Shown: positions 2,321-49,654 of the stretch, piece by piece
Position numbering within the stretch: position 1 is the first letter of the stretch
Layout of the letters: every line of letters starts with the position of its first letter
The notes under the pieces: model-generated
What the model saw: the letters and a program-made list of their open reading frames with translations, nothing else
Databases searched by the model: none
Told to the model about the DNA's origin: nothing
From: an uncultured Spirochaetota bacterium
Lineage (GTDB): Bacteria > Spirochaetota > UBA4802 > UBA5550
DNA length: 64,000 nt
Reading direction: 5' to 3'
NCBI GenBank assembly: GCA_963827275.1
Contig: CAWHAA010000004.1
Location: 486,847-550,846, forward strand
Made by a program: the position numbers and the translations under genes

Positions 2321-2347
2321 AATAAAAGACCCCGGGAGCACCCGGGG
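2321..2347 (-). terminator. rho-independent terminator downstream of the rod-protein gene
   Basis: minus strand reads CCCCGGG-tgct-CCCGGGG followed by TCTTTTATT; a copy of the TTACTCTGACCCC repeat (2344-2357) overlaps the 5' arm of the stem. Confidence 0.5.
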
Positions 2348-2373
2348 TCAGAGTAAGATTCATTTTATGATTG

Positions 2374-3274: not shown

Positions 3275-3727
3275 TTATACGATACGGGATTCGGGTAGAA
3301 TGCGTGCTATATTGGGTGGATAGCCCCAGATGAATTTCCAGTATGTGATATTATCTATCATATCTTTTATTATAACATAATTTTTATAACGATAGTTATC
3401 GGTATTAGCCTCTTTTAGAATGCTATTTAAGTATTTCGATACAGCATATGAAAGAATCAATGAAACCGACATTTTAAGCAGTTTCCTCAAATCCAGCATG
3501 TACTCATAATCATCAACCCGCAGCTGGATATGAAAAATGCGCCAGTCCTCCGGGTTGCTTCGTTCCTGGTATCTAACCATAGAGCCGAATCGTCCCGGAT
3601 CGGGAATATCATCCATAACCAGTTTTATGAGCGTAACAATTACATCCGACCGTGAAACACCCTTTAATTGTGCCGCCAGAGTGATCCTTTGTAAAGTCTC
3701 AGCATGAATATTAAGGGTTGTTTCCAT
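3275..3727 (-). CDS. hypothetical protein in AT-rich island (no recognisable motif)
   Basis: 150-aa ORF with I/K/N/Y-rich composition in a ~640-bp AT-rich segment that contrasts with the ~60% GC flanks. Confidence 0.4.
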   Translation of the reverse strand: METTLNIHAETLQRITLAAQLKGVSRSDVIVTLIKLVMDDIPDPGRFGSMVRYQERSNPEDWRIFHIQLRVDDYEYMLDLRKLLKMSVSLILSYAVSKYLNSILKEANTDNYRYKNYVIIKDMIDNITYWKFIWGYPPNIARILPESRIV

Positions 3728-11643: not shown

Positions 11644-13491
11644 TTGTATATGAACCAGAAGGTATTCAAGCGGCGGGTTATAATCGCCGGTCTGCTTTTT
11701 GCCGCGCTCTCCCTCGTTTTCATCGTGAGGCTTTTTAATCTTCATTTTTCAGGCAGGATCACGGTGTCGGACGGTGACGGCAACCCGGCGCGCCGCGGGA
11801 TCATCAGGGACCGCGGCGGGTACATCCTGGCCATTTCCCTTGAAAAGAACTCCCTCTTTGCCAATCCCGAGGAGATCACCAATCCGGAGGGGACCGCGCG
11901 CGCGCTGTCCGGGCCGCTGCAGCTTACGCCTGAAGCGATCCTGAAAAAAATTAAAAAGAAAAAGCGTTTTGTCTGGATCAAGCGGAAGATAGACGATGCT
12001 GCCGCGGAGCAGATCGGGAAACTGGACATGCCGGGCATCTATTTTAAAAAAGAGTACCGGCGCATGTATCCCCATGAGGAGCTCGCGGCGAACATCATCG
12101 GGTTCACGGGTATCGACAACGACGGCCTTGCCGGAATAGAATACGGCTTTGACCGTATCCTGGCGTCGCGGCCCGAGAGGGAGGCGGCCGGGCCGGGCGC
12201 GGGGAACTTCGGCGGGAACATCACCCTCACCATCGACCGGTTCATACAGCACGAGGCGGAACAGGAGATCGGACGCGCGGTCGCGCTTTACCGCGCCAAG
12301 CAGGGCGCCGTGCTGGTCATGGAAGTGAAAACCGGCCGGATACTCGCCCTTGCGAAGGCGCCGGGATTCAACCCGAACCGGTACTACGAATATTCTTCAT
12401 TCGATCTCAGAAATTTTTCCTTCATCGATTCGTTCGAGCCGGGCTCGACGCTGAAGATACTGTCCCTGGCGTCCATGCTCGAGCACAATCCCCCGGTAGC
12501 GGACCGCCGCTATGATTGCAAAGGCGCGATCGACATCGCCGACGTGCGGATCAACTGCACCGGGGTCCATGGCTCCGTCTCGATGAAGGACATCATCCGT
12601 CATTCCTGCAACGTCGGGGTCATCGAGGCGATGCGCGGCGTAAAAAAGAAAAACCTCTATGACACGCTCGCACGGTTCAGGTTCGGCCGCAAGACCGGCA
12701 TCGAGCTGCCGGGCGAATCGGAGGGAATTTTCCGTCACTGGAGCAGGTGGTCCGGGCTGTCAAAATACTCGATGGCTATAGGGCACGAAATCTCGGTGAC
12801 GTCGGTACAGCTTGCGGCCGCCTTCTGCGCGGTCGCCAACGGAGGGGTGTACATCTCTCCCTCGATCATTGAGTCGATTGAGGACGGCAACGGCACGGTG
12901 CTGAAAAAGTTCAGCCCCGCGGTCAGGGGGCGGGTCATCAGCAGGGATATCAGCAGGAAGCTGATGGCAATGATGCGGGGCGTGGTCGAGGGAGGGACCG
13001 GGCAGCGCGCCGGGTCGCTCTACTACTGCGTTGCGGGAAAGACCGGCACATCGCAGAAGTTCGTGCGGGCGCGTGGATATTCCGACCGCGTGCTCGCTTC
13101 ATTCGTCGGCATCGCGCCCTGCGAGGACCCCGAGGTGTGCATGCTCGTCATCATCGACGACCCGGCCGACAGGCTTTCTGGCGGCCAGATCGCTACCCCG
13201 GTCTTTGCAAATTTAATCGACAAGGTCCTGGTACGGCAGGGCGTGGTGAAAAAACGCCTCACACCGGCAGACCCGCTCCGCAGAGCCAATCCGAAGGTCG
13301 AATTCGACGGCGGCGCCATGCCCGATTTCAGGGGGCGGGGGCTGGCTGAATCGCTCTCCGCCCTTGTGGAGATGAAGAAACAAAATGATATCGTCTACTC
13401 GCTGCAGGGATCCGGCAAGGTGTATGCCCAGCAGCCGGCCCCCGGGGCACGGCTTGAAAAAGCGGGTGAGATAAAATTATTTCTGAAATAA
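11644..13491 (+). CDS. penicillin-binding protein (class B transpeptidase, FtsI/SpoVD-like) with C-terminal PASTA domain
   Basis: N-terminal TM anchor, dimerisation domain, SxxK (FEPGSTLK), SxN (SCN), KTG (KTGTSQK) motifs; C-terminal PASTA-like segment MPDFRGRGLAESLSALVEM...GEIKLFL. Confidence 0.9.
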   Translation: MYMNQKVFKRRVIIAGLLFAALSLVFIVRLFNLHFSGRITVSDGDGNPARRGIIRDRGGYILAISLEKNSLFANPEEITNPEGTARALSGPLQLTPEAILKKIKKKKRFVWIKRKIDDAAAEQIGKLDMPGIYFKKEYRRMYPHEELAANIIGFTGIDNDGLAGIEYGFDRILASRPEREAAGPGAGNFGGNITLTIDRFIQHEAEQEIGRAVALYRAKQGAVLVMEVKTGRILALAKAPGFNPNRYYEYSSFDLRNFSFIDSFEPGSTLKILSLASMLEHNPPVADRRYDCKGAIDIADVRINCTGVHGSVSMKDIIRHSCNVGVIEAMRGVKKKNLYDTLARFRFGRKTGIELPGESEGIFRHWSRWSGLSKYSMAIGHEISVTSVQLAAAFCAVANGGVYISPSIIESIEDGNGTVLKKFSPAVRGRVISRDISRKLMAMMRGVVEGGTGQRAGSLYYCVAGKTGTSQKFVRARGYSDRVLASFVGIAPCEDPEVCMLVIIDDPADRLSGGQIATPVFANLIDKVLVRQGVVKKRLTPADPLRRANPKVEFDGGAMPDFRGRGLAESLSALVEMKKQNDIVYSLQGSGKVYAQQPAPGARLEKAGEIKLFLK

Positions 13492-21756: not shown

Positions 21757-21767
21757 ATGCAGTCACG

Positions 21768-24488
<2,721 letters not shown>

Positions 24489-25679: not shown

Positions 25680-25737
25680 GTTCTCTTTTCATCAGGCGCG
25701 GCTGAATGGCCGCATTGTTAATGCGATTTGTACGGTT

Positions 25738-25790
25738 TTTACTCTGACCCCTCCCGGGGATATTGAAAAGTAGAATTTTACTCTGACCCC
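25738..25790 (+). repeat. two direct copies of TTT(T)ACTCTGACCCC
   Basis: tttACTCTGACCCC 25738-25751 and ttttACTCTGACCCC 25777-25790, 30 bp upstream of the GT4 gene. Confidence 0.75.
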
Positions 25791-25820: not shown

Positions 25821-27083
25821 ATGAAGAACGTTGGATTCATATCGACAAGAATATCTGGCACTGACGGAGTAAGCCATGAGATCGAAAAATGGGCCGCCGT
25901 GCTTGAGAAGAATGGCCTGTCCTGCTCCTATTGCGCCGGGGAAGTCGATCGGCCACGGGAACGCTGTCATGTTATCGATGAAGCCCATTTCAGGCACCCG
26001 GACATCGACACTATTAACCGGAGCGTATTTGGAAAAACAATCAGGCCGGAGAAGATAACCGACCTTATCCATGTGTTATCCGCACACTTGAAAAGCGAAC
26101 TATCAAACTATATTCGGCGTTTTGATGTCGATTGTATAATAGCCGAAAATGCGCTTGCCATTCCAATGAATATCCCTTTAGGGATAGCGTTGACAGAGCT
26201 GGTTGCAGAGACCGGTATTCCGGTTATAGCCCATCACCATGACTTTGCGTGGGAGCGTGAACGATTCCTGGTCAATGCCGCTGGTGACTACTTGCAGATG
26301 TGCTTTCCGCCTGTACTGCCCTCCGTGCTCCATGTGGTAATAAATTCGCTCGCGCGGAGGTCTCTTGCGCATCGTCGGGGCGTGACAAGCACCGTTATTC
26401 CCAATACCATTGATTACGCCAATCCACCCAAACCGGCTGATCCCGGGGCAATTAAAGGGGTCAGAGTAAATGCGGGAGTGTCCGATGGTGAAATTTTTGT
26501 TCTCCAGCCCACACGCGTGGTGCCGCGCAAATGCATTGAGCGCTCAATTGACCTTGTGAGTGGACTTGCCGGCGCGGGCAAAAGGCTTGTAATCTCACAT
26601 CCCTCCGGCGATGAGGGTGATGAGTACTATACACAATTGAAGGAATACGCGAATATGCGCCAGGTAAGTCTGGTCAGCATAGAATCGGTGGTATCGCCGG
26701 GCCGGTCGGTGTCAGAGCAACGGCCGTATACCATCGGTGAGGTATATCAGGCCGCTGATCTTGTTACATATCCTTCGGCGTATGAGGGATTCGGGAACGC
26801 CTTCCTTGAGGCAATTTATTTCAGGAAGCCAATTTTAATGAATCGCTACCCGATTTTCATAGCTGACATTGAGCCAAAAGGTTTTGAGTTATGTCTTATA
26901 AATGGGTTTGTTACCGTTGATGTGATCAGGTATGTAGAGCGAATTCTTTCAGATCCGGATGCTCGTAAGAAGATGGTAGATAAAAATTATAGTATAGCGA
27001 GCGAGTGTTTTTCTTATCAAAGGCTTGAAGATCTTTTAATGGGTGTGGTGGGCTGCCTCAGACCTCGATCTCCTTGCAGATGA
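25821..27083 (+). CDS. glycosyltransferase family 4 (GT-B, Glycos_transf_1)
   Basis: C-terminal GT4 signature ...VTYPSAYEGFGNAFLEAIYFRKPIL...; 420 aa; contains an intragenic copy of GGGGTCAGAGTAAAT at 26457-26471. Confidence 0.75.
   Translation: MKNVGFISTRISGTDGVSHEIEKWAAVLEKNGLSCSYCAGEVDRPRERCHVIDEAHFRHPDIDTINRSVFGKTIRPEKITDLIHVLSAHLKSELSNYIRRFDVDCIIAENALAIPMNIPLGIALTELVAETGIPVIAHHHDFAWERERFLVNAAGDYLQMCFPPVLPSVLHVVINSLARRSLAHRRGVTSTVIPNTIDYANPPKPADPGAIKGVRVNAGVSDGEIFVLQPTRVVPRKCIERSIDLVSGLAGAGKRLVISHPSGDEGDEYYTQLKEYANMRQVSLVSIESVVSPGRSVSEQRPYTIGEVYQAADLVTYPSAYEGFGNAFLEAIYFRKPILMNRYPIFIADIEPKGFELCLINGFVTVDVIRYVERILSDPDARKKMVDKNYSIASECFSYQRLEDLLMGVVGCLRPRSPCR
26457..26471 (-). repeat. intragenic copy of the repeat core (GGGGTCAGAGTAAAT)
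   Basis: exact 15-mer shared with 34591-34605; encodes K-G-V-R-V-N in the GT4 gene. Confidence 0.7.
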
Positions 27084-27771
27084 TCATTTCCGAGTCTTCT
27101 TCCTCCGGTCGAACTCGGTAGAGTATGCCATTTCTATCTGCTATTAAACTACGCGCTTGCAAGAAATTGCGAAATTCAGATTTGACACCGCAAACCTTGA
27201 CGATGACCGCATTCGCCATCGCTGCACCCCGGACATAAATATCAAGATCACGCTTGAATTTTTCATCCGCAGATTCCTCTCTCCTTGGTGAAAAAGTAGG
27301 GGCAAATATTAGGTGAGTTCCCTGCTCGCGCATGAAATGAAAAGCATCGTCTTCAAATACATCGGCGCAGATAATCACTCCAAAAGTAATTCCATGTGCA
27401 CTGAATACCTGATATAAGTCTCCTGGTGTTATCTTGCCCACTTCAGCAAAAAAGAGTCGTTTTTTACGATAACTACCCAATAGGATGCCATTATGAAACA
27501 CAAAACAGGTATTGTAAGTTACCCCATTTGCAAGTTCTGGCATTGTCCCACCGATAACAACGGTTGACAGTTCCTTGGATAATTTTGATATTCGCTGCAA
27601 TTGACGTTTTTGGTTGTGGGGCGTTTGGTTCTGTGTGCCCAGAGCAGTGTTTACGAAAAAATATTCGGGGAAACATATAAAGTGTGGCTTGAAACTTCGA
27701 AACAGGCTGGTGTCAGAGTGAGTTATAGGGACTCCAAGCGGTTTTTGAGATATTATAATTCGAAGTTTCAT
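27058..27771 (-). CDS. carbon-nitrogen hydrolase family protein (nitrilase/amidase superfamily)
   Basis: ORF 27058-27786, probable start MKLRIIISQ; catalytic Cys context GVIICADVFED; low-GC; 3' end overlaps the convergent GT4 gene by ~26 nt. Confidence 0.7.
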   Translation of the reverse strand: MKLRIIISQKPLGVPITHSDTSLFRSFKPHFICFPEYFFVNTALGTQNQTPHNQKRQLQRISKLSKELSTVVIGGTMPELANGVTYNTCFVFHNGILLGSYRKKRLFFAEVGKITPGDLYQVFSAHGITFGVIICADVFEDDAFHFMREQGTHLIFAPTFSPRREESADEKFKRDLDIYVRGAAMANAVIVKVCGVKSEFRNFLQARSLIADRNGILYRVRPEEEDSEMIICKEIEV

Positions 27772-27839
27772 GACTACGTTTCCCATGCAACTAGTAATCT
27801 TTTATTTAATAATATCAAGAGATTTTAGTGTCAGAGTAA
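27712..27839 (-). repeat. two copies of the repeat core (GTCAGAGT / GTCAGAGTAA) downstream of the transposase gene
   Basis: GTCAGAGTg at 27712-27719 and GTCAGAGTAA at 27830-27839. Confidence 0.5.
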
Positions 27840-28002
27840 CATTATTTTAGTACTGGAATAGCATAGTAGCAAAAATATCTAGTAATCTGGGATCTATGGA
27901 CTTTAAAGATAATCAGAACTGATTTGAATTTTAAGGAGAGAAGGCTTAATAAAATAAGCTAAATATTTGTACTTCTGGAATTCCAACTGTTGCGATAACC
28001 AA

Positions 28003-28602
28003 TTACCCAAACAGGCTTTCCGGGAAGATTCGCTTTCTATACCTTTCTTCGTATTCAAGAAATTTTCCGACCCGTTCCTCGAAGGTAGCCCCCAGCTTTA
28101 CAAAATATTCATGCAGGGTGATGGTTACCGGCGGAATGAATTCCTTGCTCAAATAGCAGCGGATAGACCCATACTTGTAATCTCGGGGATCTGCGACAGT
28201 TTTGCTTTTTACCGGATTATAGGCCATATAAAGCAATATTACGAAAAACGTCGAAACCGGGTCGTCAGTAAGTTCAATAATGGTATCGCTGAAGCGCTCA
28301 TTCCAGAAGGGGCCAATCCTGCCCATGATCCGGTTATATCGCCGTGCAAATTGTGACTTGATGAACTGCATGATACGAGAAATGGACTCGCCGCCATCAA
28401 GCGTACGGATAAGAAAATGGAAATGATTGGCCATGAGGGTATAGTTGATCAGCTCAAAATGGTATTTTTCAAGCGCCAGGTCTAAGACAAAAAGCATCAA
28501 GTCTTTCATCTCATCAGAATGCATGAGGTGTTTTTTCTCGATGCAGCGTGACATGGTGTGATAGGTATGTTCCGGCAGGCAGTTCCGTTGTTTTCGCGGC
28601 AT
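28003..28602 (-). CDS. REP-associated tyrosine transposase (RAYT; IS200/IS605-like Y1 HUH transposase, TnpA_REP)
   Basis: Aligns by eye with E. coli YafM/RAYT: HuH motif YTLMANHFHFLIRT (cf. LPEHMHCIWTL), GPFWNERFSD (cf. QPRFWEHAIRN), catalytic Tyr block FVILLYMAYNPVKSK (cf. YIYINPVKHG); single gene, low GC. Confidence 0.85.
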   Translation of the reverse strand: MPRKQRNCLPEHTYHTMSRCIEKKHLMHSDEMKDLMLFVLDLALEKYHFELINYTLMANHFHFLIRTLDGGESISRIMQFIKSQFARRYNRIMGRIGPFWNERFSDTIIELTDDPVSTFFVILLYMAYNPVKSKTVADPRDYKYGSIRCYLSKEFIPPVTITLHEYFVKLGATFEERVGKFLEYEERYRKRIFPESLFG

Positions 28603-28685
28603 GGCGTCCTCCTTTGCTTGTGGGATGTCTTGCTTGCGTTTGCTGTATATACGAATGGGAGGCCGCCTTCTGGTAATAATTTTAT

Positions 28686-28700
28686 GGGGTCAGAGTAAAA
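28686..28700 (-). repeat. copy of repeat core (GGGGTCAGAGTAAAA) just upstream of the RAYT gene
   Basis: exact core match. Confidence 0.6.
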
Positions 28701-28756
28701 AAGTTAAATATAAAAATAAATTTCATTCCAAGACTCTTTGCCGTTTATTCCCTCCC

Positions 28757-28793
28757 ACGTAGCTTTCATTCCACAAAACGTAGCATTCATTCC
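28757..28793 (+). promoter_or_regulatory. tandem direct repeat ACGTAGCwTTCATTCC x2 (21-bp period) upstream of the ECF sigma gene
   Basis: acgtagctttcattcc (28757-28772) and acgtagcattcattcc (28778-28793); third TTCATTCC at 28722-28729; candidate transcription-factor binding sites. Confidence 0.4.
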
Positions 28794-28920
28794 TCTTGGC
28801 TTGCGTATTTTTAAAAGATTCGGTATTAATTATTACAACAATATGCTTCCTTTGTTCTGGTCCCGGGATGGCCGGCATGGAAGGCGTATTGTGATTTTAT
28901 TGTTATGGTGAGGAGGGAAT

Positions 28921-29475
28921 ATGTCAGAATTAAATTATGCCGATGCCGGATTTGATGAGCAATTTTCCATTAATTATCGAAAGTTTTCTCTGGCGGTAGT
29001 GAGGTTCCTGAAAAAAATCATCTATGACAGAGACATCTGCGAGGAACTGTGTCAGGATGTATTTCTCAAAGTATACGAAAGAAAAGTTCGGCTTGATCCG
29101 GATGCGCCTCAGACGCTGAATTATTTATTTACCATGGCAAAGAATATGGCCATAGATTATCTGCGGCGCAGAAGGTCCGAAGAAGACAAATTGAAGTATT
29201 TGCGCCTTGATGAAGCGCACATGGACCGCCAATTTTATGAAAATATTGAAAACATATGTCTGCGCGGGGAGATTATCTCTACTTTAAGGGATACGATTGA
29301 TTCTTTTCCTCAAAAACAACGGACTCTATTTATCGCTAAGAATTTATTCAATATATCAAAAGCCACACTATCCAAAGACAGCGGCATTTCTTTGTATCTA
29401 TTGAGGCAGATGGAGGGTGAAATCGTTCGTAAGATAAAAAGCAATCTCGGGCATTTCTTTGGATATAATGATTAA
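28921..29475 (+). CDS. ECF-type sigma-70 family sigma factor (orphan, low GC)
   Basis: Region 2 CQDVFLKVYER..., region 4 QKQRTLFIAKNLFNISKATLSKDSGISLYLLRQ; no adjacent anti-sigma. Confidence 0.75.
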   Translation: MSELNYADAGFDEQFSINYRKFSLAVVRFLKKIIYDRDICEELCQDVFLKVYERKVRLDPDAPQTLNYLFTMAKNMAIDYLRRRRSEEDKLKYLRLDEAHMDRQFYENIENICLRGEIISTLRDTIDSFPQKQRTLFIAKNLFNISKATLSKDSGISLYLLRQMEGEIVRKIKSNLGHFFGYND

Positions 29476-29672
29476 CAGAATAATCTTGACAGGAAAAACA
29501 TAAAAAAGATAAAGAAAAAATTCGAGAACCGGGACTCCGCGTCCGTGGCGCGCGACGGCGGTACGTCCGTCTATCTATTTAAGAAGATAGAGCGTGAGTT
29601 CAACCGGCGGGTATGGGACTCCCTATGGCACTATTTTTCCGGCGCAGAATAATGTATTGACAAAAAAAGAGA

Positions 29673-29702
29673 CCGGGATATGTTGACCGAGCGCTCGTTC
29701 GG
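29673..29702 (+). promoter_or_regulatory. putative sigma-70 promoter with embedded palindromic operator (ACCGAGCGCTCGTTCGGT) for the tetR-icmF unit
   Basis: TTGACC (29673-29678), 18-nt spacer, TATATT (29697-29702); perfect 10-bp palindrome CGAGCGCTCG (29678-29687) inside the spacer. Confidence 0.45.
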
Positions 29703-29729
29703 TATTATATTATAATCATAAGGGGGGTC

Positions 29730-30410
29730 ATGGCGCCCGCGCAAGGGGCTCCGGAAGCCATGGAAACAAAAAAAAGGGGGAAAAACGTACCGACACAGAT
29801 CAAGAACCAGGACCTGGTCGCGAAGCGACGGCGGCAGATTATAGACGCGGCCGTGCGTCTGTTCATAGAAAAAGGTTTTCACAAAACGACCACCCGTCAG
29901 ATCGCCGCCGCGGCCGGTCTGCCGATCGGCTCCATGTATGAATACGTGGCCTCAAAGGAGGACATCCTCTACCTTGTCTGCGACGCGATACACGCCGAGG
30001 TCGAGAAGGGCGTGATCGAAGCCATGGCCCGGGCCAGCAAGGGGAAGAACATCCTGGCCGGGGCTATCCGGGAATACTTCCTGGTGAGCGACCGTATGAG
30101 CGACCACATCCTGCTTATCTATCAGGAGACGCAGTCACTCCCCCGCCAGTGGCGCCGCAAGGTGCTGGAGAACGAGGTACGCATTACCGGGATCTTCATT
30201 ACCCTGATCAAGCTCCTGATATCCTCCGGCGATCTGCCGCCGCGCGGTGACCGCGCAGTAGAAGTGGCGGCACACAATATCGCTGTGCTGGGACACATGT
30301 GGACCTTCAGGCGATGGTTCTTCACCCGGCACTACAGCATCGAGGAATATATCAAACTCCAGACCGAGTTCATCCTTGGATCGTATAAAATGAAGGAAAA
30401 GAAACAATAA
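29730..30410 (+). CDS. TetR/AcrR family transcriptional regulator
   Basis: N-terminal HTH RRRQIIDAAVRLFIEKGFHKTTTRQIAAAAGLPIGSMYEYVASKEDIL. Confidence 0.85.
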   Translation: MAPAQGAPEAMETKKRGKNVPTQIKNQDLVAKRRRQIIDAAVRLFIEKGFHKTTTRQIAAAAGLPIGSMYEYVASKEDILYLVCDAIHAEVEKGVIEAMARASKGKNILAGAIREYFLVSDRMSDHILLIYQETQSLPRQWRRKVLENEVRITGIFITLIKLLISSGDLPPRGDRAVEVAAHNIAVLGHMWTFRRWFFTRHYSIEEYIKLQTEFILGSYKMKEKKQ

Positions 30411-33794: not shown

Positions 33795-33878
33795 TCATAT
33801 CCCTCTGTTTTTATGGTAAAATTCTCTTCCTGCTGTGAATTAAACTGAAGCTGGCCAGCCTGATTTGATAATAAGACT

Positions 33879-33967
33879 GCTCTGACACCTCGTTTTCAGA
33901 ATATTTTACTCTGACCCCGGTTTCCCATTTTCAATTTACTCTGACACCAAATATTTACTCTGACCCC
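33879..33967 (+). repeat. tandem array of four ACTCTGAC(C/A)CC repeat cores
   Basis: gCTCTGACACC 33879-33889; ttttACTCTGACCCC 33904-33918; tttACTCTGACACC 33935-33948; tttACTCTGACCCC 33954-33967; lies between icmF and the convergent sulfatase gene (last copy overlaps its 3' end). Confidence 0.75.
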
Positions 33968-35892
33968 AGGCCTTTCCTTCGTGGCGGTTCAGATGTAGGC
34001 CAGAGTCTGTTTGAATTCAGTATTTTCTGATTAATGTAAATATCCATGAGCCTTTTTCGCAGACGCTTCATCACTGCGGGCTTCCCTCTCCCGGCAAGAT
34101 TGTGCTCCTCCCGGGGATCGGTCGTGAGGTTAAAGAGATATTCTTTGCCGGTTTCGGAATGATGAATGTATTTCAATGGATATTCCACAATGCCAAGGAA
34201 CAGGCCATTATACGGTTGTATCAAGTATACCGGTCCTGTTTTTACGCCAGGTGACACCAAAGATTGCCCGAGAAAATGCGTTTTCACGCCTGATATGCCC
34301 GCAATGTCGAGTATGGTGGGTGCGATATCGAGCTGGGAATAGGCCTCGTTGAGGATGCGTGGCCCAATTCTGCTGTTCCATAGTATCAGCAGGGGGGTCC
34401 GGAAGACCTCATCGTAGAACCCGACTTCATTGTGCGAGATTCCATGTTCATTAATTGGAAAACTGTGATCGCCGGTGATAATTACAGCTGTGTTGGCGTG
34501 TTGCGGTCGTTTGGCTATTCCTTTCAACAGGTCTCGAAGACCCTGATCGGATAAATGGATGGAATTGGCGTAGCGCTGATCGATCGTAGTGGGGTCAGAG
34601 TAAATCAAACACTTATCTTTCGGTACGTAATCGAACCACATATGGTTCGATGTCGTTGCCAGGAGAGCGAAGACCGGCCTGCCGCCGTTCCGCTGCCTGA
34701 TGCGTTCCATCTGGCGGAGGCATAGTTTATAGAAGAGGCCGTCCTCGGGGCCCCAGCCCCATACCTGCGGGGCGTCCGCATCAGTCAAAAATTCGTAGGC
34801 GGAATGGATATGCCGGAAGCCGGCCTTTTTCATAAAGGCCCTGGTGTTATCGAAATCGAGCTCGCGGGCGGCCTGCATGAACAGTGTGTCATATCCGGCA
34901 TCGTGCAGTAGCTCCGGGAGCGCCCTGAAGGAAAGCTCGGGGAATGACGTGAAGATTTTTCCGCGAATGCTCGGTAGCACGGACAGCAAGACCGCGGCCT
35001 GTCCCTTGCATGTCTGGACGGAATTGCCGTAGAAGCGCTCGACGTAGAGGCCGCGGGGGATGAGTGAATTGAATACCGGCGTTATCTCCTTTCCCTCCGG
35101 GGACTTCTTCCTGACTACATTGGCGTTATATGATTCAACCATTACCAGGACAATATCCGGCCTGGATGATCCCCTCGGAAGGGCCGGCGACGCGTTGAAT
35201 GTTGTCAGGTACGGGTATCCGCTAACGCTGATGCCGGCCATGGGGTCCTGGAAGGGATAGCGGAGGATTCCCCGCAGGAGGCCGGTGAATTCATCATGGG
35301 TCTTGACCGGCAGCAGCAGTATCACCGCATAGAGCAGAGCGGCCACGACTGTTTTTTTCGCCGCATGCGGGTATTCTGGCGGGGATACCAGAATTTTTTT
35401 CCGCCAGTGAAGCATGAGCAGGAGTACGAGAGATATCCCGATTATGATGAAGAACCAACGGGGAAAAATTCCGATGATGGTGTACCAGGATTCCTTGTAA
35501 AAGCCGAGGGTGAAATTATCGATAATGATGGAACAGTTGAGCGGGATGTGTGTTATGAGATAGTAGGTGTGTATCATTGTAAACAGCGTTAAAAAGAGCA
35601 TGTTGATGACAAGCCGTACCGCCCGCACCCTGCTGGCCGCAAGGTTGATAAGCTGGACCGCGACAGTGGCCGTGAATATGCTGTAACAGATATACAGTGC
35701 CGATGTTATGGAGAGATCGAAAGGCCGTATGCCGTAACGCCGCTGGAATCCGTATAAAAAAAATATCATGAGGATGACTGTCAGGGTATTCATGCAGCCA
35801 AGATCCAGGGGGAGCCACTCACGTACCAGCTCGCGATATCTGCGGGCTCTCTTTGTGATTATGTCTAACGTGGTGGTATCGCTCCTTGTCAT
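33955..35892 (-). CDS. LTA-synthase/sulfatase family membrane protein (alkaline-phosphatase superfamily)
   Basis: 5 N-terminal TM helices; extracytoplasmic sulfatase domain (DIVLVMVESYNAN..., ITGDHSFPINEHG); contains intragenic repeat copy 34591-34605. Confidence 0.8.
   Translation of the reverse strand: MTRSDTTTLDIITKRARRYRELVREWLPLDLGCMNTLTVILMIFFLYGFQRRYGIRPFDLSITSALYICYSIFTATVAVQLINLAASRVRAVRLVINMLFLTLFTMIHTYYLITHIPLNCSIIIDNFTLGFYKESWYTIIGIFPRWFFIIIGISLVLLLMLHWRKKILVSPPEYPHAAKKTVVAALLYAVILLLPVKTHDEFTGLLRGILRYPFQDPMAGISVSGYPYLTTFNASPALPRGSSRPDIVLVMVESYNANVVRKKSPEGKEITPVFNSLIPRGLYVERFYGNSVQTCKGQAAVLLSVLPSIRGKIFTSFPELSFRALPELLHDAGYDTLFMQAARELDFDNTRAFMKKAGFRHIHSAYEFLTDADAPQVWGWGPEDGLFYKLCLRQMERIRQRNGGRPVFALLATTSNHMWFDYVPKDKCLIYSDPTTIDQRYANSIHLSDQGLRDLLKGIAKRPQHANTAVIITGDHSFPINEHGISHNEVGFYDEVFRTPLLILWNSRIGPRILNEAYSQLDIAPTILDIAGISGVKTHFLGQSLVSPGVKTGPVYLIQPYNGLFLGIVEYPLKYIHHSETGKEYLFNLTTDPREEHNLAGRGKPAVMKRLRKRLMDIYINQKILNSNRLWPTSEPPRRKGLGSE
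34591..34605 (-). repeat. intragenic copy of the repeat core (GGGGTCAGAGTAAAT)
   Basis: identical 15-mer to 26457-26471; encodes L-I-Y-S-D-P on the sulfatase coding strand. Confidence 0.7.
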
Positions 35893-43307: not shown

Positions 43308-43439
43308 CCGATAGTTATCGGTACTGTTTAAGTATTAATTTACTCTGACCCTGCGACGTCACACATTAATTCCGATAGTTATCGGTAATAAAGTTACTCT
43401 GACCCCGCAATCACATGCAAGAATCCCGATAGTTATCGG
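43308..43439 (+). repeat. composite repeat array: 3 x CCGATAGTTATCGG(TA) palindrome interleaved with 2 x TT(T)ACTCTGACCC(C)
   Basis: palindromes at 43308-43321, 43372-43385, 43426-43439; cores at 43339-43351, 43394-43406; spacer 43407-43425 (gcaatcacatgcaag...) recurs at 48698-48715. Confidence 0.8.
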
Positions 43440-48678: not shown

Positions 48679-48682
48679 TTAT

Positions 48683-48729
48683 TTACTCTGACTCCCGCAA
48701 TCACCTGCAATGATACCGATAGTTATCGG
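48683..48729 (+). repeat. composite repeat unit TTTACTCTGACTCCC-N18-CCGATAGTTATCGG
   Basis: 5 nt after the antiporter stop; near-identical to the unit at 43394-43439. Confidence 0.75.
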
Positions 48730-48886
48730 TAAGAAAAGCAGCAGTACTGTCATAAACCTGATTGTTTCGAATAAAATGTCGGTTATTTGGGACAGTTATA
48801 AAATACTTCTTGAAAATTCACCTTATACGCTGACCATCACCCCTGTCATTAAGAATCCATCAGACGGCCACGGCCGCGGAGAAAGC

Positions 48887-49654
48887 ATGATCACACTCGG
48901 CATCGACATCGGTTCAATCACCACCAAGGCGGCGGTCGTAAAGGACGGGAAGCTCCTCGGGACGCGGGTGGGCTTTACCGGCTACAATATCGAAAAGGCC
49001 TGGCGGCACGTCACGGAAGAGCTCCTCGGCGGGCTGGGGCTTGAATTTTCCTCACTGGAGAAGATCGTCTCCACCGGTTACGGCAGGGCAAGTGTCGAGC
49101 CGGCCCACAAGTCTGTCACCGAGATCACCTGTCATGCCGCGGGGGCGCATTTCTGCGCGCCGCACATCCGTTCCATCATTGATATCGGCGGCCAGGACTC
49201 GAAATCGATCGTCCTCGACGAGAATGGGAAAGTAAAGGATTTCGTCATGAATGACAAGTGCGCGGCCGGCACCGGTCGCTTCCTCGAGGTCATGGCGCGG
49301 GCGCTGCAGATTGATCTTGAGGATTTCGGCGATATCTCCCTCATGGCGGAAAAGCCGGGGAAGATATCGAGCCTCTGCACGGTGTTTGCCGAGTCGGAGG
49401 TCATCTCCCTCATCTCCCGGGGGGAGTCGCGTGAAAATATCGTTGCCGGCATCCACGAGTCGATCGCGATGCGGATCTCGGCCATGGCCAACCGTGTGGG
49501 CGTGCGGCCGCCGCTCATGATGACCGGCGGCGTGGCCAAGAATGTCGGCGTGGTGAGGGCGCTGGAGAAGAAGCTCGGCATGCCGATTGAAGTGTCGGAG
49601 CACGCGCAGGTGATGGGCGCCATCGGCGCGGCGGTGCTGGCCAGGGATGTGTGA
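48887..49654 (+). CDS. acyl-CoA dehydratase activase-type ATPase (BadF/BadG/BcrA/BcrD / HgdC-like, CoA-substrate-specific enzyme activase)
   Basis: ORF from 48710; start ATG 48887 (MITLGIDIGSITTKAAV); actin-like ATPase phosphate-1 motif; bridging Cys pair context ...KCAAGTGRFLE...; 255 aa. Confidence 0.8.
   Translation: MITLGIDIGSITTKAAVVKDGKLLGTRVGFTGYNIEKAWRHVTEELLGGLGLEFSSLEKIVSTGYGRASVEPAHKSVTEITCHAAGAHFCAPHIRSIIDIGGQDSKSIVLDENGKVKDFVMNDKCAAGTGRFLEVMARALQIDLEDFGDISLMAEKPGKISSLCTVFAESEVISLISRGESRENIVAGIHESIAMRISAMANRVGVRPPLMMTGGVAKNVGVVRALEKKLGMPIEVSEHAQVMGAIGAAVLARDV

Follow-up and report, generated by a model that had tools for sequence, protein, structure and literature searches.

A short non-palindromic word, probably the cognate repeat of a RAYT-class transposase, inside neighbouring genes of an uncultured Spirochaetota bacterium

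A 15-mer shared by unrelated genes and a RAYT-class transposase gene

The 64,000-nucleotide stretch of DNA analysed here (hereafter the window), from contig CAWHAA010000004.1 of an uncultured Spirochaetota bacterium, contains a 15-mer, GGGGTCAGAGTAAAT, that lies inside two unrelated genes, one for a family 4 glycosyltransferase (GT4) and one for a sulfatase-fold protein, and, in related forms, on both sides of a gene encoding a RAYT-class transposase of the Y1 HUH type. The genes and motif copies at the core of the analysis are the following:

25821..27083, + strand: gene for the family 4 glycosyltransferase, mannosylglucosylglycerate-synthase-like, 420 aa (Pfam Glycos_transf_1, thousands of homologues)
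28003..28602, - strand: RAYT-class Y1 HUH transposase gene, 199 aa, with NHFHF at residues 59-63 and YMAYNP at residues 125-130
33955..35892, - strand: gene for the sulfatase-fold, LTA-synthase-like membrane protein, 645 aa (Pfam Sulfatase)
26457..26471, + strand: exact 15-mer in the GT4 gene, codons 213-217 (GVRVN), a substitution with no indel relative to homologues
34591..34605, + strand: exact 15-mer in the sulfatase/LTA-synthase-like gene, antisense to it, codons 430-434 (IYSDP)
28686..28700, + strand: motif copy upstream of the RAYT gene, 84 nt from its start; the RAYT sense strand reads TTTTACTCTGACCCC
27827..27840, + strand: degenerate motif copy AGTGTCAGAGTAAC downstream of the RAYT gene, 163 nt past its stop and co-oriented with the upstream copy

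An earlier reading of this DNA from its letters alone (hereafter the sequence-only reading) had reported the word in the GT4 and sulfatase genes, on different strands, and judged it too long to be a coincidence. Both copies are indeed exact and both genes genuine, and the codons bear out the hexapeptides given for them, KGVRVN in the GT4 gene (GGG GTC AGA GTA AAT for GVRVN, with K before) and LIYSDP in the sulfatase gene (ATT TAC TCT GAC CCC for IYSDP, with L before). The two genes do lie on opposite strands, whereas the copies themselves share the + strand. A third exact copy, at 33953-33967 (-), had not been singled out. As to coincidence, 100 dinucleotide shuffles of the window did not yield a single exact GGGGTCAGAGTAAAT, 14 copies with at most two mismatches are present where 0.08 are expected, and the window's coding sequence contains two exact 14-mers against an expectation of zero after codon shuffling. 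The 9-mer core GTCAGAGTA, found 15 times, is by far the strongest over-represented word in the window. The motif can be written TTTACTCTGAC(C/A)CC, the reverse complement of GGGGTCAGAGTAAA, and is short and not palindromic; its word forms include TTTACTCTGACCCC and a variant with GACACC, and ATCTACCCTGATCCC is an example of a near-match. Position counts over the 15 window copies and 143 copies from relatives retain only (T)TTACTCTGAC(C/A)CC, with unconserved flanks, and they reveal neither a conserved hairpin nor a longer shared element beside the motif.

The protein encoded at 28003-28602 matches Pfam Y1_Tnp (PF01797; 3e-10) and, over the full length of the model, NCBIfam REP_Tyr_transpos (2e-20), with a score of 73 bits that falls slightly below the 80-bit cutoff. 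Its closest solved structure, by sequence profile and by the fold of its model (pLDDT 93), is Escherichia coli TnpA_REP (4er8), and the HUH and Y---NP motifs are conserved in 26 homologues. One RAYT gene is present in the window, and in genomes with several of them the paralogues are 50-70% identical. The gene is missing between the same neighbours in one relative, and the same locus is occupied in the sister species. GC content is 0.44 around it (window 26001-30000) compared with about 0.55-0.6 elsewhere, the spacers on both sides being AT-rich. Short-read assemblies of this and the sister species (L001-L004, L007) break at or beside the RAYT gene, and many RAYT homologues are found on contigs of ~1 kb, consistent with assembly-confounding repeats. 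We found no description in the literature of RAYTs in spirochaetes or of this word.

Origin of the copies in the glycosyltransferase and sulfatase genes

The closest GT4 orthologue with available DNA (82% amino acid identity) reads TGC ATC AGG GAT ACG at the site of the 15-mer and differs from it at 8 of the 15 bases, and homologues carry x[LI]R[RK][ED] there, so that GVRVN is unique to this lineage and occupies a variable position. The sulfatase orthologue (73% identity) reads ATC TAC CCT GAT CCC (IYPDP) and differs at 3 of the 15 bases; one of these differences replaces a conserved proline by serine, homologues carrying [IM]YP[DE]P. Codons of orthologues that lack the motif, which had been suggested as a check on amino acid conservation, consequently speak against that explanation, and we consider it supported by these comparisons that the word is in both genes neither by chance nor through amino acid conservation. 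Because both explanations fail for the two copies, a force acting at the DNA level is indicated. Alignments with 60 homologues each for GT4 and sulfatase, and with six orthologues of MgsA at three sites (see below), contain no indel or gap at the motif. Judged from these alignments, the GT4 and sulfatase copies have been shown to arise by base substitution and not by insertion. The sequence-only reading had inferred DNA-level selection or insertion; of this, the DNA-level force stands and insertion is contradicted by the gap-free alignments.

Assembly error is an unlikely source of the copies, because both are present in independent assemblies: the GT4 copy recurs in L001-L003 and the sulfatase copy in a 98.4%-identical strain (L007/L008). 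A recombination junction at the motif was also considered and rejected, since the identity between GT4 and its orthologue shows no step there; the single-nucleotide differences from the 98.4%-identical strain are evenly spread. As to the order of events, the sister species has a RAYT gene at the same locus, and its GT4 gene lacks the motif. The GT4 copy lies 1.5 kb downstream of the RAYT gene, co-oriented with the RAYT-flanking copies, and matches the in-gene pattern of relatives described below.

The third exact copy, 33953-33967 (-), touches the sulfatase-like gene in another way, as the final six codons of its open reading frame (ORF) and the TAA that ends it (KGLGSE*) come from this copy. 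This ORF extends ~9 residues beyond the end of its orthologues (33955-33990, -), finishing with ..RRKGLGSE* inside the motif copy, so the repeat replaced or extended the 3' end of the gene.

The motif accompanies RAYT genes across relatives

A scan of species-representative genomes provided 80 homologous RAYT loci from uncultured Spirochaetota. About 30 of these homologous loci, from many Spirochaetota genomes, have one motif copy ~80 nt before the RAYT gene and another 170-250 nt behind it; in the loci L009-L042, whose RAYT proteins are 55-72% identical, the core TACTCTGAC is found at about -80 and at about +170 to +250. In these loci, as in the window, the two flanking copies are co-oriented and both read TTTACTCTGAC.. 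on the sense strand of the gene. More diverged paralogues are flanked by variants of their own, either GCTCTGACC or the palindromic GGCTCWGAGCC, and the genome MIBJ01 holds two types, each beside its own paralogue (TACTCTGAC in L010 and L021, GGCTCTGACC in L043). Such co-variation of motif and paralogue is what would be expected of an enzyme and its site.

The copies are also concentrated around the gene. Of ~131 copies in 27 full-length loci, 89 are no more than 2 kb from the RAYT gene, and beyond ~3 kb the density in relatives falls to about 0.08 per kb; in the window, seven of ten copy clusters are within 6.5 kb of it. Over 1.38 Mb, the motif is ~40 times denser in intergenic than in coding sequence. 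A fixed orientation of the intergenic copies relative to flanking genes was rejected, as the preference is weak (50 vs 27 in tandem spacers) and divergent spacers hold copies too.

Several further observations concern the surroundings of these genes. In the 27 loci, copies 1-2 kb upstream of the RAYT gene tend to read GGGGTCAGAG.. on its sense strand (9 vs 3), and those 1-2 kb downstream tend to read ..CTCTGACCCC (10 vs 2). This outer inverted pair, ~1 kb out and often in neighbouring genes, represents few independent events, some of the loci being orthologous. A conserved box (A/T)TCGTATA(T/C)A lies ~45-50 nt upstream of RAYT starts in L009-L042 (in the window at about 28648-28656), between the motif and the start codon, and its region may be a RAYT promoter or operator. 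The upstream motif copy is followed by a run of 6-8 T in the same loci. Finally, intergenic DNA of L055 contains at 12094-12800, ~2 kb downstream of a RAYT paralogue, at least six tandem units that repeat every 34 nt and that each include GGCTCAGAGCC.

Copies inside genes of the relatives

Coding sequences of the relatives match the motif with 0, 1 and 2 mismatches in 8, 8 and 21 cases, respectively, against 0, 0.13 and 4.3 expected under codon shuffling. These copies cluster near RAYT genes for two motif types:

TACTCTGAC type: 17 in-gene copies in 91 kb within 2.5 kb of RAYT (0.25 expected); 2 in 262 kb farther away (0.47 expected)
GCTCWGAGC type, one genome: 14 in-gene copies in 24.7 kb within 2.5 kb of RAYT (0.14 expected); 6 in 66 kb farther away (0.29 expected)

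The host genes are genuine and include mgsA, a BamB/OmpA-like gene, brkB, aminotransferases, a response regulator, gidB, and others. In-gene copies are restricted to the four stop-free frames of the motif, which recur as xYSDP (TAC TCT GAC CC), GVRV (GGG GTC AGA GTA), FTLT (TTT ACT CTG ACC), and GQSK. Codon choice follows the motif, with 10 of 39 YSD tripeptides encoded as TAC TCT GAC where 0.8 are expected. MgsA of three close species carries FTLTP at a variable position where distant orthologues differ without any gap, and, beside a RAYT gene of the GGCTCTGAGCC type, the conserved MgsA sequence RGSDPDAA has become RGSEPDAA. In the MgsA, BamB-like and BrkB orthologue sets, conservation is higher at the motif codons than at other synonymous sites, an apparent sign that the in-gene copies are maintained.

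The replication-associated gene mgsA (rarA) adjoins a RAYT paralogue in L025, L033, L037, and L063 (at about 8.1-9.4 kb). These RAYTs are mutually only ~53% identical, and each mgsA carries the motif variant of the neighbouring RAYT. Intragenic REPs have been noted in replication and repair genes (PMC3733652).

Other motif copies and a second repeat family in the window

Most of the remaining copies in the window are intergenic and form short direct-repeat clusters, not inverted pairs, the spacers between clustered copies being unrelated in sequence:

33877..33967, - strand: four direct copies, at 33953-33967 (exact), 33934-33948, 33904-33918, and 33877-33889 (degenerate), with periods of 19, 30, and 29 nt, between the convergent MCM-fusion and sulfatase-like genes
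25737..25790, - strand: two direct copies, 39 nt apart, in the spacer between the FecR and GT4 genes, a spacer of only 17 nt in the sister species
21766..21823, - strand: a direct pair with a spacing of 43 nt, in a convergent intergenic region and interleaved with the CGATAACTATCG palindrome
43338..43406, - strand: a direct pair with a spacing of 54 nt, among which the CCGATAGTTATCGG palindrome is interleaved three times
48681..48695, - strand: one copy, GGAGTCAGAGTAAAT, occupying the 31-nt spacer that separates a Na+/H+ exchanger gene from the following ORF
2344..2358, + strand: copy GGGGTCAGAGTAAGA, 13 of 15 bases, in the 5' arm of a terminator-like hairpin

The last of these had been described as a related copy built into the stem of the terminator that follows a flagellar gene. 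The terminator arm is there, downstream of the flagellar rod gene, GACCCC forming the 5' arm of the (-) hairpin GACCCCGGG TGCT CCCGGGGTC TTTTATT (2349 to 2328); the match to the motif stays at 13 of 15 bases and is not fuller than that. Tandem Repeats Finder returned no matches at the motif clusters, which together with the unrelated spacers rules out a tandem array or CRISPR-like structure, and a known RNA family was rejected as well, Rfam giving no matches in the window.

The window also contains seven members of a second repeat family, whose near-perfect palindrome reads TACCGATA(AC/GT)TATCGGTA:

3390-3401
21791-21802
21834-21845
43309-43320
43373-43384
43427-43438
48717-48728

Six of the seven have a copy of the 15-mer at a distance of 9-20 nt, and members of both families are interleaved in the 21.8-kb and 43.3-kb clusters. 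The palindrome may be recognised by a different protein, or by a further RAYT paralogue encoded elsewhere in the genome. ORF 48710-49654 contains the copy at 48717 in its first codons and its Pfam domain only from residue 63 onwards; the true start of this ORF is probably further downstream.

Comparison with known repeat systems

The system shares many traits with the REP/REPIN-RAYT pairs (REPtrons; TnpA_REP, class 2 TnpA-Y1). These include a Y1 HUH enzyme with the Y---NP signature and TnpA_REP as its closest solved relative, a gene flanked by its own short repeat (at 28686 and 27827, with 13 further core copies in the window), a dispersed, mostly extragenic and often clustered repeat that sometimes gives stop codons or terminator arms, and several diverged, co-varying enzyme-repeat pairs per genome at low copy number. 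REP ends often supply stop codons, and intragenic REPs and repeat-supplied stop codons are known, described as insertions (PMC3733652). A REP forms an imperfect palindrome, bears a 5' tag of the GTAG type and usually occurs in inverted pairs (REPINs). The repeat studied here, in contrast, is a 13-15-nt non-palindromic word, and the 15 window and 143 relatives' copies have neither the hairpin nor the GTAG tag nor the inverted pairing. Moreover, its nearest flanking copies are direct, its copies lie within a few kb of the gene, and a measurable share of them are inside genes by substitution.

TIRYT/RAYT genes can be flanked by non-REP repeats that share GGGGWSAS and occur in dimers and clusters (PMC3733652), and GGGGTCAG fits this TIRYT head, GGGG[AT][CG]A[CG]. 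The resemblance to the TIRYT/TIRtron systems (Di Nocera et al. 2013, PMC3733652; subclass 2.1, Quentin et al. 2018, PMC6006769) extends to a RAYT-like gene with non-REP flanks, moderately abundant repeat families organised as dimers and clusters, an HUH motif of the NH[YF]H type, and several diverged copies per genome. However, TIRs are long inverted terminal repeats, whereas this repeat is short and, both in the window and in L009-L042, its nearest copies point the same way; an inverted arrangement appears here only as a statistical tendency of the outer pair, in some loci, ~1 kb out and inside neighbouring genes. The protein, at 199 aa shorter than the median of 238, has a Y motif (YIAYNP) off the published consensus of subclass 2.1, and assignment by the published HUH, W, and Y consensus motifs gave no clean fit to any subclass.

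With IS200/IS605 elements (IS608, ISDra2) the enzyme shares its catalytic fold and the system a strand-specific logic with direct recognition sequences at both ends, and the motif contains TTAC, the IS608 target. Unlike them, it has no subterminal hairpins, no tnpB nearby and no near-identical multicopy elements (one copy in the window), and its signature is Y---NP rather than Y---Q. The DNA uptake sequences of Neisseria (DUS) and the uptake signal sequences of Haemophilus (USS) are likewise short oriented words found in genes via substitution at tolerant positions and sometimes in terminators. The motif differs from them in being centred on a transposase-like gene, with several variants per genome, low density, a strongly intergenic distribution, and direct clusters; judged on RAYT-centred loci and one 64-kb window, it is not a single, even, gene-independent motif at about one per kb. 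Rickettsia palindromic elements (RPEs) and intragenic REPs resemble it as repeat members in frame inside functional genes, but those insert residues, whereas here codons are overwritten and length is kept. As in parS/ParB, recognition sites are clustered around the gene of the protein, some in coding sequence; this is an analogy only, the protein families being unrelated and parS being palindromic and bound as double-stranded DNA.

Proposed explanation

We consider it probable, from the associations described above, that the motif is the cognate repeat of the RAYT-class enzyme and that its in-gene copies arose by substitution under a local, DNA-level bias. The gene is bracketed by two co-oriented motif copies, and further copies form a cloud that thins with distance, most of them intergenic, often in short direct clusters, where they can contribute a stop codon or the arm of a terminator. 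The copies in the GT4 and sulfatase genes would be members of this RAYT-centred cloud, at positions that either resembled the motif already or tolerate change. In the version we favour, the enzyme would bind and nick cognate and near-cognate sites in single-stranded DNA near its site of production, and a perfect motif close by would then be the template from which a near-match is overwritten, through repair or template switching. Template switching would change several bases at once, keep the length and act over a short range, and ongoing conversion would keep the copies intact. It is only a tentative proposal, in which we place rather limited confidence, that RAYT-class enzymes of this spirochaete family write a 13-15-nt word around their own gene in a length-neutral manner, via nick-triggered, templated short-patch conversion.

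A number of points weigh against this explanation. The sulfatase copy is 6 kb from the RAYT gene, beyond the 2.5-kb zone of relatives; it is only 0.6 kb from the four-copy cluster. The 8 of 15 differences that separate the GT4 site from the nearest available orthologue are many for stepwise change. Binding and cleavage of the motif by the enzyme are putative, the hairpin and GTAG tag that known RAYTs recognise are absent from the motif, and the nearest flanking copies are direct and not inverted as in described REPtrons and TIRtrons. To our knowledge, no mechanism has been described that would let a Y1 enzyme overwrite 14-15 bases length-neutrally. Sampling also matters, as the source genome is represented by one 64-kb window, the loci of relatives were picked for containing a RAYT gene, several in-gene cases are orthologous copies of one event, and ORFs in the relatives were called by a crude longest-ORF rule.

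The main rival keeps the same motif-enzyme pairing and holds that the copies are retained by selection as binding sites of a domesticated DNA-binding protein, the site cluster titrating the protein, autoregulating it or organising the local DNA, like parS near parB, with sites created by point mutation and fixed by selection. Conservation of the motif codons above the synonymous background in three orthologue sets is in line with it, as are the operator-like fixed position of the copy ~80 nt upstream, the strong pressure needed to change conserved residues (proline to serine in the sulfatase, aspartate to glutamate in MgsA), and the divergence of RAYT paralogues, which are not identical, as would be the case for domesticated genes (bioRxiv 10.1101/119735). 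However, conservation of the catalytic HUH and Tyr residues suggests that nuclease/ligase activity is retained, and many redundant sites at variable positions in chance-adjacent genes are hard to justify by selection; different genomes have different host genes, no single site looks essential, and selection alone leaves the orientation pattern around the RAYT gene unexplained. Selection for binding is rather unlikely in our view, if less so than the alternatives that follow. By far the least credible of these is that the match reflects chance or amino acid conservation, a prospect we regard as negligible: although the conserved sulfatase peptide IYxDP accounts for 12 of the 15 bases and conservation explains two near-copies with three mismatches in the window (26708 and 27709), the expected number of exact copies is zero, GVRVN is a lineage-unique peptide at a variable position, and codon choice is strongly biased towards the motif, the shuffles, orthologue codons and codon-bias tests together refuting this origin for the exact copies.

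The sequence-only reading compared the word with an uptake-signal or Chi-like motif, or else with target-site mimicry of a mobile element. Known uptake sequences such as the USS enter genes through substitutions where conservation is poor, and they too show an excess of near-matches. A DNA uptake sequence comparable to the Neisseria DUS or Pasteurellaceae USS, spread by biased uptake and recombination, would account for these same features here and for the copy that contributes a terminator arm, but it sits poorly with a motif at fixed positions beside a Y1 transposase gene in many genomes, with several variants per genome that each follow their own paralogue, with a density that decays steeply over ~2.5 kb from the RAYT gene, with a 40-fold intergenic excess, and with direct tandem clusters instead of inverted pairs; nor was any competence machinery seen, although no search aimed at it was made. 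The uptake or Chi-like interpretation is therefore not supported, and an uptake sequence is highly improbable. Mimicry fared better in one respect, a relation to a mobile element being the closest reading, whereas the status of the motif as an insertion target finds no support. That the in-gene copies are themselves in-frame insertions of a miniature element is even less probable than an uptake sequence. Intragenic REP and RPE insertions are documented (PMC3733652), and BrkB does show a length difference beside the motif relative to a 50%-identical orthologue, yet GT4, sulfatase and MgsA have none at the motif, one to three substitutions separate the site in the sulfatase and the RGSDP site in MgsA from the ancestral codons, and the copies share nothing beyond the 13-15-mer.

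Implications

The feature is real and statistically strong, and its best place is among the RAYT/TIRYT repeat systems, as a variant that is unusual for its substitution into neighbouring genes. How RAYT repeats spread and what role RAYTs have in their hosts are unsettled, and the known systems involve palindromic repeats kept outside genes. What is unusual here is the short non-palindromic word, the concentration of its copies around the gene of the enzyme, and its substitution into neighbouring coding sequence, sometimes at the cost of conserved residues. The system therefore offers a handle on the recognition site of the enzyme and on its action in cis, as well as a natural example of DNA-level pressure overriding protein-level constraint. 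In genome scans, long identical words in unrelated genes can flag a nearby Y1 transposase and not an uptake signal. If the tentative conversion mechanism is correct, a distance-decaying cloud of sites would overwrite the codons of neighbouring housekeeping genes, even at conserved residues, and this would be a new, non-insertional route by which an enzyme derived from a mobile element propagates its site and edits the coding sequence of its host.

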